Assembly (NCBI GenBank): GCA_963720755.1
Contig: CAVRGP010000011.1
Coordinates: 864,001 to 928,000, forward strand
Source of the DNA: an uncultured Chloroflexia bacterium
GTDB taxonomy: Bacteria > Chloroflexota > Limnocylindria > Limnocylindrales > CSP1-4
DNA: 64,000 nt
Direction: 5' to 3'
Within the stretch, counting starts at the first letter, position 1; every line of letters starts with the position of its first letter. This document shows positions 46,331-50,119 of the stretch, piece by piece. The notes under the pieces are model-generated. The model had not been told where the DNA came from, ran no database searches, and was given only the letters and a program-made list of their open reading frames with translations. The translations under genes and the position numbers were made by a program.

Positions 46331-46390
46331 TATACTTCGGCGCAACTGAACGGCCGCTCCGGGACGTGGGTGACCCCCACGTCTCTTTTT
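46331..46390 (+). promoter_or_regulatory. nusA operon promoter (TATACT) followed by a leader terminator (rimP-leader-like attenuator)
   Basis: TATACT at 46331-46336; 10-bp stem GGGACGTGGG/CCCACGTCTC at 46361-46385 followed by TTTTT. Confidence 0.75.
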
Positions 46391-46432
46391 GAGTGGCGCA
46401 CGACGAAACACGCACAGCGAACGGAGGCCATC

Positions 46433-47917
46433 GTGAGTCGAGACTTCGTGGGTGCCCTCCTGCAGCTCAACGCCGAGAAGCAGATCTCGCGCGAGCAACT
46501 GATCGGAGCCGTCGAGGACGGGATCCAGTCGGCGTATCGGCGGGTAGCCGGGGACGAAGATATCCATGTCCGGATCGATGGCGAGACGGGCAAGATCCGG
46601 GTATTCCGTGCCCGCCGCGTCGTCGCCGAGATCGAGGATGAAGCCACCGAGATCACACTCGCGCAGGCGCAGGGACACGAACCCAACGCCGAGATCGGCG
46701 ACCTTGTCGAGACCGAGCAGCTCGACGGCGATGTCTTCGGCCGGATCGGGGCGCAGACCGCGAAGCAGATCGTCCTGCAGCGGATCCGCGAGGTCGAGCG
46801 CGACCAGGTCTTCGACCAGTTCGCGAGTCGCGAGGGCGAGCTCATGAACGGCACGGTCAATCGGGTCGAGCCGCGGGCGATCATCCTGGACGTCGGCAAG
46901 AACGTCGAGGCCATCCTGGCCACAACGGAGCAGTCGACCCTCGAGCACTACCGGATCGGCCAGAACGTCAAGGCGTACGTACTCGAAGTGCGGCGCTCGA
47001 CGAGAGGCCCGCAGATCTTCGTCAGTCGCAGCCATAAGGGCTTCCTGAAGCGCCTGTTCGAACTCGAGGTGCCCGAGATCAGCGCCGGCACCGTCGAGAT
47101 CAAGGCCATCGCGCGCGAAGCCGGGAGCCGCTCGAAAGTGGCCGTCGCTTCGCGACAGGAAGGGCTCGATCCCGTCGGGGCGACCGTCGGGCAACGTGGT
47201 GCCCGTGTCCAGGCGGTGGTCGCGGAGCTCGCGGGCGAAAAGATCGATGTGATCCCGTGGAGCGACGACGCCGGCGTGTTCGTGGCCAATGCTCTCAGTC
47301 CGGCCCAGGTCCTGGGGGTGGACATCGACGAGGAGCACCGCATCGCCAGCGTGACCGTGCCGGAGCGGATGCTCTCCCTGGCGATCGGACGCGAGGGCCA
47401 GAACGCTCGACTCGCCGCCCGGTTGTCGGGCTGGCGGATCGACATCCGGAGCGATGTGTCGGTCGCCGAAGCGAAGGCGGCCGCCGATGCAGTCGAGGAG
47501 GCGGCACCGGTCGCCGCGGTCGAGCCGCCGTCCATGCCAGACCCGGCTGGGTCGACGCCGGGACTGGACGCGCTCGCCGAGGATGCGCCGGAGGTCCCGG
47601 CCGCCAAGAAGGCCGCCGCGAAGACCAAGGCCACGGCCAAGATCCCAACGAAGACCGCAACGACGGCTACTGCCAAGGCCACCACCAAGGCCGCGGCAAA
47701 GAAGGCCCCCATGGCCAAGAAGGCCCCCGCAGCCAAGGTGACCGCGGCCACGGACGTCCCCGAAACGAAGAAGGCGACGGCCAGCAAGCGCTCCACGACC
47801 GCCAAGGTCGCGCCGGTCGATGAGCCGTCGACCGCCGACACGCCGGCCGCCGCGAAGCCGAAGCGAGTCGCCAAGAAGGTGGTACCGGCCGCCGTCACCG
47901 AGGAGGTGGCGTCGTAG
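46433..47917 (+). CDS. nusA: Transcription termination factor NusA with a Lys/Ala-rich tail
   Basis: FGRIGAQTAKQ, AREAGSRSK and AIGREGQN motifs; GGAGG ahead of the GTG at 46433. Confidence 0.97.
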   Translation: MSRDFVGALLQLNAEKQISREQLIGAVEDGIQSAYRRVAGDEDIHVRIDGETGKIRVFRARRVVAEIEDEATEITLAQAQGHEPNAEIGDLVETEQLDGDVFGRIGAQTAKQIVLQRIREVERDQVFDQFASREGELMNGTVNRVEPRAIILDVGKNVEAILATTEQSTLEHYRIGQNVKAYVLEVRRSTRGPQIFVSRSHKGFLKRLFELEVPEISAGTVEIKAIAREAGSRSKVAVASRQEGLDPVGATVGQRGARVQAVVAELAGEKIDVIPWSDDAGVFVANALSPAQVLGVDIDEEHRIASVTVPERMLSLAIGREGQNARLAARLSGWRIDIRSDVSVAEAKAAADAVEEAAPVAAVEPPSMPDPAGSTPGLDALAEDAPEVPAAKKAAAKTKATAKIPTKTATTATAKATTKAAAKKAPMAKKAPAAKVTAATDVPETKKATASKRSTTAKVAPVDEPSTADTPAAAKPKRVAKKVVPAAVTEEVAS

Positions 47918-48237
47918 CCGGCGCGAGCCGACTCGCCGCGCGGCGGGTCCCCGATCGAACCTGCGTCGCCTGCCGGACGGTCCGACAGAAGCGTGATCTG
48001 CTGCGCGTCGTTCGGACGCCAGCCGGGGAGGTCGTCGCCGACGAGACCGGCCGGGCGAACGGCCGCGGCGCGTATATCTGTCGGACGACGGACTGTCTCG
48101 ACCGAGCGATCAAGAAGGGCGCCCTCAGCCGGGCGCTGAAATCTCCACTTCCGGCCGACCTGCGTGAGCAGCTCGTCGGGAGCCTGGAGTCCGAGATGAC
48201 ATCGACCATCGAAGGAGGGGCCCATGGCCAGGAGTAG
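47914..48237 (+). CDS. ylxR: YlxR/RnpM (DUF448) nucleic-acid-binding protein; no canonical start, probable GTA
   Basis: Manual translation: RRVPDRTCVACR..KRDLLRVVR..GRGAYIC..C..A.KKGALSRAL; nusA-ylxR-infB synteny; absent from the ORF track. Confidence 0.9.
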   Translation, partial: VAGASRLAARRVPDRTCVACRTVRQKRDLLRVVRTPAGEVVADETGRANGRGAYICRTTDCLDRAIKKGALSRALKSPLPADLREQLVGSLESEMTSTIEGGAHGQE

Positions 48238-50119
48238 GAGCGGCACCCGCGGCCGACGCGGACCCCGCAAGCCGCCGCGTCGAGACAGCGCGTTCAGTGG
48301 AGCTGGCGTCCAGACGCTCGATCCGCGCGAGCGTGGTCCGATCGAGCTGCCCGGTACGATCACCGTCAAGGAGCTGGGCGAACTCCTCGGGGTCAATCCG
48401 GCCGACATCATCCGCGAGCTGATCAAGAGCGGGATCTTCGCGACCATCAACCAGCTGATCGACCGCGATACCGCTTCACTGGTGGCCGGGGAACTTGGCT
48501 ACGAAGTGGCCGAGACCGAGCCGGCGGGCAGTGGCGACGAGGTCGAGGTCGAGGTCGGTGAGGCGACCAAGGAAGTCCTGTTCGAAGAGGACGATCCTTC
48601 CCTCCTGCAGCCGCGGGCACCGATCGTGACCGTCATGGGTCACGTGGACCACGGCAAGACGAGCCTGCTCGACGCGATCCGGACGACCGAGGTCGCGTCC
48701 GGCGAACGTGGCGGGATCACCCAGCACATCGGGGCCAGCGAGGTCGTCCACGACGGCAAGCGCGTGGTCTTCCTCGACACGCCGGGTCACGAGGCGTTCA
48801 CGGCGATGCGCGCACGTGGCGCCAAGGTCACGGACATCGCGATCGTGGTCGTGGCGGCCGACGACGGGGTCATGCCCCAGACGCTCGAGGCGATCAGCCA
48901 CGCCAAGGCCGCCAAGGTGCCGATCATCATCGCCCTAAACAAGATCGACAAGCCGGATGCGAACGCCGATCGGGTCAAGACCGAATTGACCGAAGCCGGG
49001 ATCGTGGTCGAGGAATACGGCGGCGACGTGCCGCTCGTCCCGGTGTCCGCCAAGACGCGGATCGGGCTCGAAGAACTGATCGAGATGATCCTGCTGGTGG
49101 CCGATCTCCAGGAGCTCAAGGCCAACCCGAAACGATCGGCCATCGGCACGATCGTCGAGGCCAAGCTGGACAAGGGCAGAGGCCCCGTGGCCACGGCGCT
49201 GGTCCAGACCGGGACCTTGAAGGTCGGCGACATCATCGTGGTCGGTGAGACCTTCGGTCGCGTCCGGGCCCTGGAGAACGACCAGGGCAAGCGAGTCACC
49301 AAGGCCGGACCGTCGACCGCGGTCGTCATCCTTGGCCTGTCCGACGTCCCGCAGGCCGGCGACATCCTCCGCGTCGTCGGCGACGAGAAGGCCGCCCGCA
49401 CCATGGTCGAGACCCGCAAGTCCGCGTCCGCGGCCAAGAGCGGCGAAGCCAGCCGGGCGACCCTCGAGGACCTGTACAGCCAGATCCAGGCGGGTCAGGC
49501 ACGCGAATTGCGGGTCATCCTCAAGTCAGACGTGTCGGGCTCGCTGGGTGCGATCACCCACGCCCTCGAACAGCTCGACCAGGACGAGATCCGCCTCAAT
49601 GTCCTGCTCGAGGGGGCAGGGGACATCACCGACAACGACATCATGCTGGCGGCTGCTTCGAACGCGATCGTCATCGGCTTCAACACCAAGATCACCGAGA
49701 CCGCTCGTCGCGCGGCCGAGTCCGAGGGTGTCGATGTCAGGCTCTACGACATCATCTACAAGCTGACCGACGACGTGGAGGCCGCGCTCAAGGGCCTCCT
49801 CGAGCCCGAGATCGTGGAAGTCGTCGAAGGCCGAGCCGAGGTCCGACAGGTCATCCGGGTCGGGAAGAACACGGTCATCGCCGGCTCGTTCGTGACCGAC
49901 GGCCGGATCGTCCGCGGCGGCAACGCCCGGGTGTGGCGTAGTTCCAAGGTCATCGCCACCGACCGGATCGAGTCGCTTCGGCGCTTCCGCGATGACGTGC
50001 GTGAGGTGCAGACGAACTACGAATGCGGGATCGGGCTGGCCGCCTTCCACGACATCGTCGAAGGTGACGTGATCGAGTGTTTCACCTCGCAGACCGTCAG
50101 CCGGGTTTCGGCGAACTAG
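48224..50119 (+). CDS. infB: Translation initiation factor IF-2 (short form)
   Basis: [13 protein letters not shown] and NKID motifs. Confidence 0.98.

Follow-up and report, generated by a model that had tools for sequence, protein, structure and literature searches.

A putative GUA start codon of rnpM (ylxR), overlapping the nusA stop codon, in a family of Chloroflexota

Natural start codons that are both non-canonical and conserved are known in just a few bacterial genes. The infC gene has been reported to start with AUU in E. coli (PMC2268962) and with AUA in S. aureus (PMC13009471). For ccpN (AUA) and cvfC1 (AUU) of S. aureus, Ribo-RET and reporters demonstrated conserved starts for which an extended Shine-Dalgarno sequence (SD) compensates, with an output of about 10%, and the output of ccpN was described to vary with the medium (PMC13009471). 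GUA was reported to initiate at 7-14% of the AUG level in TEM-1 in E. coli (PMC4032126), and a survey of all 64 codons placed 57 of them at 0.1-1% (bioRxiv 10.1101/063800). In another study, the output was 238 units for AUA, 48 for ACG and 7314 for AUG (PMC3643588). A recJ mutant of E. coli carrying GUA was reported to be subject to IF3-mediated suppression (Haggerty and Lovett 1997), and excess IF3 was described in E. coli to inhibit non-canonical initiation as well as reinitiation, less so in the presence of an SD (PMC2268962).

Termination-reinitiation at four-base overlaps of stop and start has been described for AUGA-type pairs with canonical starts (PMC6728339). The RNase P modulator RnpM (YlxR) of B. 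subtilis was reported to limit RNase P in vitro and to be highly expressed (PMC10853771). Our literature search, with most subscription papers and all supplements outside its reach, turned up neither a natural conserved GUA start nor a non-canonical start of ylxR/rnpM; within this literature, GUA starts were seen in laboratory mutants only.

Here, we analysed a stretch of 64,000 nucleotides (the window), in which rnpM, encoding a regulator of tRNA processing, appears to start with GUA, a codon that hardly ever begins a protein. Like infC, rnpM is a translation-related gene with a conserved near-cognate start behind an SD, where near-cognate codons replace one another. In contrast to infC, the gene encodes RnpM instead of IF3, which excludes direct autoregulation in a loop; its codon has two mismatches to AUG and overlaps the upstream stop codon. 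With ccpN and cvfC1 (PMC13009471) it shares a weak conserved start supported by an extended SD, but codon, gene and phylum differ, as do the stop/start overlap and the recurrence in several lineages, and while the two S. aureus starts were demonstrated experimentally, that of rnpM is predicted from comparison. In the reports on recJ and TEM-1, GUA was able to initiate weakly; those codons are laboratory mutations, whereas the GUA of rnpM is natural and conserved in a family. The four-base overlap and the SD inside the upstream gene resemble the known reinitiation pairs, except that the overlap is GUAG instead of AUGA. As in described RnpM loci, the protein matches the family profiles, the gene lies between nusA and infB, and the genome encodes the RNA and the protein of RNase P; it differs in lacking an adjoining rimP or rplGA ORF, in its start, and probably in being expressed at a low rather than a high level.

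The nusA-ylxR-infB region of the window

The gene order is nusA, ylxR/rnpM, infB, rbfA, with the following features:

46433..47917, + strand: nusA (TIGR01953, 386.7 bits, above the cut-off)
47901..47908, + strand: extended SD of ylxR, AGGAGGTG, within nusA, pairing with the 3' end of the genome's 16S rRNA
47914..47916, + strand: proposed GUA start of ylxR (GTA in 72 of 78 family genomes; initiation predicted)
47914..48237, + strand: ylxR/rnpM, 107 aa, RNase P modulator family (NF047356 and PF04296, both above the cut-off)
48212..48218, + strand: AAGGAGG, the infB SD, embedded in the coding sequence of ylxR (-12.7 kcal/mol)
48224..50119, + strand: infB (IF2), ATG start (TIGR00487, 763.6 bits)

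The product of the ylxR frame scores 96.8 bits with the NCBIfam model NF047356 of RnpM (cut-off 80) and 99.2 bits with Pfam PF04296 (cut-off 26.9), in agreement with its position between nusA and infB. Following an in-frame TGA at 47821-47823, the frame is open from 47824 to 48237. A first-pass annotation of this DNA had stated that no canonical start lies between this TGA and the conserved PxRTC motif, and our analysis agrees: the first in-frame CTG is found at 47998 and the first ATG, GTG or TTG is an ATG at 48196, 94 codons after the GTA, both past the motif. The same annotation had pointed to a strong SD ahead of the GTA, which is indeed present as AGGAGGT(G) at 47901-47908. The final codons of nusA (EEVAS*) double as SD and proposed start of ylxR, with the nusA stop TAG (47915-47917) and the GTA overlapping as GTAG. 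This arrangement had been likened to the -4 overlaps of the window. We counted 15 canonical -4 overlaps among 55 crudely called plus-strand genes (GTGA 8, ATGA 5, TTGA 2), which bears out the likeness. At its other end, ylxR stops with TAG (48235-48237), overlapping infB by 14 nt from the ATG at 48224, as had also been noted.

Some further features of the region may be mentioned. A terminator made up of a hairpin and a T-run lies immediately before nusA (46361-46392). Ahead of nusA we found no rimP ORF in the window, and neither rimP nor rplGA was found next to ylxR; the ORF upstream of nusA is presumably ispG, judging from its sequence. The tail of NusA (47460-47917) is long and rich in Ala, Lys, Thr and Pro, similar to histone-like repeats. 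Its length varies over the family, and an EEVAS-like end, which encodes the SD, always closes it. The opening of infB (48224-48250) reads AGG AGT AGG AGC, rare codons for a GC-rich genome that supply the ylxR stop; in loci L033 and L045, AGG AGC AGG AGC is kept at the infB start, although the ylxR stop lies upstream.

The nusA-ylxR junction within the family

For comparison, 79 loci of the family were taken, of which one (L407) ends before a readable junction; one genome (G331) is unpublished. The named relatives are Chloroflexota, a close protein carries the label Candidatus Limnocylindrales, and the family, one of soil bacteria, probably belongs to the Limnocylindrales. In the 78 readable genomes the junction is GTAG in 71, ATAG in four, and GTAA, CTAG and GTGA in one each. 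The codon at the start site is hence GTA in 72 genomes, ATA in four, CTA in one and GTG in one, that is, a near-cognate, non-canonical codon in 77 of 78, with a strong SD at proper spacing. The alignment of relatives proposed in the first-pass annotation supports the junction, with GTAG or GTAA in 72 of 78 genomes. Reading in frame from the nusA core leads directly to the TAG as the stop of nusA in 70 of 78 loci. Five loci (L004, L016, L019, L390, L395) have a frameshifted nusA tail whose other frame yields the usual C-terminus, in three the nusA core is missing, and the junctions of L039 and L396 were read by eye, the script having chosen a downstream site. Since these genomes are kin and not independent, the 78 junctions represent few events. 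Which codon came first depends on the tree: ATA is basal in the NusA tree and nested in the tree of NusA and IF2.

The single canonical genome (L395) carries GTG at the same -4 position and is nested among GTA genomes, which fixes the start site by positional homology. The GTC one codon upstream (47911) was rejected as a start; it varies to GAC, AAC, ACC, CCC and GCC. From the junction to the first Cys the spacer is 14-22 codons and in frame in 48 of 48 loci. No ATG, GTG or TTG occurs in this interval in 35 of the 48, and none in the whole open frame before the first Cys in 28.

The base preceding the nusA stop is the third position of a Ser, Pro, Thr or Arg codon, and all 49 genomes have G or A there (77 of 78 in the extended set). 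At four-fold degenerate columns of nusA (46 genomes), none of 94 lacked a pyrimidine, none was invariant, and the mean identity was 0.53, so that the purine at the junction exceeds what chance would give. Avoidance of CTAG as the reason for G or A was ruled out: CTAG has an observed/expected ratio of 0.38 in the source genome as a whole, but it is the commonest context at TAG stops, where C precedes 295 of 585; after Ser, Pro and Thr codons at TAG, C was found 43 times and G 41 times.

A sequencing error was likewise ruled out. All 24 same-genus genomes that gave a match have GTAG at the junction (one of 25 gave none), and contigs from two runs, which belong to one study and possibly to the source sample, cross it. 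One contig (depth 3) shows a single difference, at 47835, and the other (depth 5.4) shows three, two listed elsewhere and the third without a listed position. A base or indel error restoring a canonical start, which had been named as the observation to look for in reads, was not among the differences listed for these contigs. A pseudogene was ruled out by conserved motifs and protein constraint. CxxC and the GRGAY motif are present in all 70 family loci scored, and the pN/pS of ylxR is 0.45, compared to 0.40 in the sister family f4 with ATG starts (both uncorrected and near saturation). Judged by these values, RnpM of the GUA-start family is as constrained as that of its sister family.

An altered initiation machinery that makes near-cognate starts common would be a more general explanation, and the initiator tRNA was not assembled in the source genome. 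However, its anticodon arm is canonical, with CAU, in 20 of 20 relatives, and among 29 in-frame GTAG junctions of the source genome, ylxR alone combines a very strong SD with no canonical codon nearby. These two results rule out genome-wide relaxed initiation, and taken together with the conservation and constraint of ylxR they leave an altered machinery, a dead remnant or a base error with hardly any credit. Another GTAG junction (G000:C8:22520, plus strand) is immediately preceded by an SD-like GGAGGAGG, and a canonical codon is missing over 26 codons; its SD spacing looks too short.

RnpM could also be made as a fusion to NusA through frameshifting near the nusA stop. The frame relation of nusA stop and ylxR is fixed within the family, and the alternative frame is often open upstream, as this would require. 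On the other hand, a slippery sequence is absent, the frame is interrupted by stops 3, 4 and 5 codons ahead of the GTA in L017, L022 and L032, and L395 has a plain GTGA. Moreover, three loci of a second family (f2) carry an extra base that shifts the frame relation, and the ACG found there at the start site remains in frame. We consider such a fusion very improbable.

The SD of ylxR forms a duplex of -16.4 kcal/mol with the 16S 3' end of its own genome, a strength reached in only one of 492 canonical -4 overlaps. Within the family the median is -14.7 kcal/mol, with 49 of 49 at or below -9, while 2.4% of the control windows in the nusA tail reach this value; a few loci of the extended set (L391, L400, L403) have weaker SDs of -6.3 to -7.9. 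In the ATG family f4 the median is -9.5. The opening cost of the ylxR ribosome site is 18.0 kcal/mol compared to a control median of 14.2, near the 75-90th percentile of the controls, and a more folded site of this kind would fit a dependence on nusA translation.

Start codons of ylxR in other lineages and of infC

In contrast to the GUA family, f4 has ATG in all 27 loci fetched (of 30). In f2, ACG directly follows the nusA stop in 14 of 14 loci. Family f22 has ATA, ATC or ATT at codon -9 in 16 of 16, where its sister family has ATG, GTG or TTG in seven of nine genes; the SD median is -6.9 kcal/mol in f22 and -4.3 in the canonical sister family. Three f22 genes additionally have a TTG that belongs to the nusA stop and directly abuts the SD. 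Families f3 and f5 (29 loci) are ambiguous and were left out of the non-canonical lineages: in 13 loci an ATG with a strong SD lies 50-53 nt within nusA, 14 offer nothing but ATC at -8/-5, with a weak SD, one has ATC at -44 and one GTG. Outside the class, a canonical codon was found 6-33 codons before the first Cys in 62 of 68 loci (read by eye; 84 matches). Among named loci it was found in 77 of 80, two of the exceptions being of the GTAG type, and the Bacillota have a canonical start in 30 of 30 loci (of 33 matches). That the non-canonical starts have independent origins is judged mainly from taxonomy and from the differing codon positions; the NusA tree lacks the f14 loci, whose match to NusA was short, and the tree of NusA and IF2 misplaces f2.

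As side observations, in f3 (L043-L097, L332-L339) NusA ends in DEDE...LLGGKKKK, and the ATG inside nusA and the possible ATC 8 nt before the stop belong to different genera with a complementary distribution. Several YlxR proteins of f22 (L148, L155, L255, L257, L263, L266, L269) have only one of the four cysteines left (CxxT, second pair missing) and are still under constraint.

The infC start is non-canonical in 13 of 13 family genomes, with ATC in seven, CTG in four and ATA in two, and infC shows the same swapping among weak codons as ylxR. In the source genome, IF3 is encoded away from ylxR (L101, G000:C15:510711 region) with an ATC start of its own; unlike in the infC loop, the product of ylxR is not the factor that discriminates the codon. 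The other infC loci are L366-L377, and CTG as an infC start is noteworthy in itself.

A weak start might simply be tolerated, with a low need for RnpM, drift, and an overlap that freezes whichever near-cognate codon is present. The differing codons across lineages would fit, as would family f24, where ACG, GCG and CTG are scattered and a canonical codon is missing from 4 of 30 loci (two of them with ACG), the absence of a ylxR match in 6 of 6 genomes of g39, a genus of the sister family of f22, and the one viable reversion to GTG in L395. Yet a synonymous path from GTAG through GTAA to GTGA is open and TGA is preferred as a stop (it ends 2023 of the 2700 genes crudely called in the source genome), and GTGA still occurs once in 78 genomes, despite four-fold sites that are near saturation. 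Neither the strengthened SD nor the unrelaxed protein constraint would be expected from drift, and we regard a start of no regulatory meaning as quite unlikely.

Dosage of RnpM and its relation to infB

We favour the reading, with a probability of about 0.7, that rnpM truly starts with the GUA at 47914, coupled to nusA, and that this start sets the dose of RnpM below that of NusA and IF2 in a manner responsive to IF3. From the sequence, its conservation, the codon swaps, the SD strength and the protein constraint we infer the following course of initiation. Ribosomes ending nusA at UAG would be retained by an SD pairing of 8 nt and, stepping back by one base, would begin again on GUA with a normal fMet-tRNA; part of the initiation may be de novo. 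As GUA pairs poorly with the CAU anticodon, a minority of restarts would succeed, and RnpM would therefore be made well below NusA and IF2 of the same mRNA. The weak codon and the strong SD would be maintained together by selection as a dose-setting device. As with infC, abundant IF3 would lower the output of RnpM and a shortage of IF3 would raise it.

That GUA initiation limits YlxR had been proposed in the first-pass annotation. The proposal is well supported by comparative evidence, because the position is invariant, the swaps are to near-cognate codons, GTGA occurs once, the SD is strengthened and the protein is intact. Holding RnpM below NusA and IF2 is the likeliest role of the GUA, and together with the other weak codons at the same spot this suggests that the cell deliberately keeps RnpM scarce. 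Such scarcity would not be a need of the whole RnpM family, since RnpM of B. subtilis is abundant (PMC10853771). Sensitivity to IF3 is a probable consequence, following from the work in E. coli, where the reinitiation data also indicate that the SD may blunt this control. RNA runs share 0.04 of words with the genome. The source genome carries both RNase P genes (RF00010, 184.5 bits; PF00825, 69.1 bits), and it is predicted from B. subtilis that RnpM of the window binds and limits RNase P RNA.

It had further been proposed that coupled IF2 synthesis is sensitive to the level of IF3. In such a feedback device, infB would depend on ylxR translation, either through coupling at the 14-nt overlap or through Rho-dependent polarity over 324 poorly translated nucleotides. 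In 46 of 48 family loci the end of ylxR overlaps or adjoins the beginning of infB, Rho is encoded in the source genome, and melting of the upstream RNA lowers the opening cost of the infB site from 11.6 to 7.4 kcal/mol. However, control genes gain similarly (14.2 to 11.0), and the infB site is more open than theirs to begin with (medians 11.6 vs 14.2). Moreover, infB has its own strong SD, and we found no conserved hairpin masking its site by folding. The overlap is shared with ATG-start ylxR (4 of 4 loci examined in f4) and absent in L034 and L095, and the coding strand of ylxR is G-rich and not C-rich (G119, C107). An essential factor strictly bound to a weak start would also be expected to become limiting. 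A control of IF2 through the ylxR start appears unlikely.

A broader and tentative idea is that rnpM is a second, repeatedly evolved sensor of initiation fidelity. At least three lineages of Chloroflexota would have swapped the start independently, to GUA/AUA, ACG or AUH, and the status of IF3 (free 30S) would set the level of RnpM; RNase P and tRNA maturation would in this way be matched to the capacity for translation, as would perhaps the supply of IF2 via the ylxR-infB overlap. If this holds true, GUA would be a natural start codon kept across a whole bacterial family.

These starts also have a practical effect, as 28 of 48 genomes offer gene callers no canonical codon before the domain. 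The callers set the ylxR start at arbitrary codons upstream or within the domain, giving extensions of 133, 125 and 120 aa or 77-aa forms without the first CxxC.

Overall, the comparative data indicate that the non-canonical start of rnpM is real, conserved and recurrent. The family-wide GUA and the parallel ACG and AUH starts mark rnpM as dosage-sensitive or regulated. They offer a direct way of testing what RNase P requires a modulator for, which the report on B. subtilis RnpM (PMC10853771) left unanswered.
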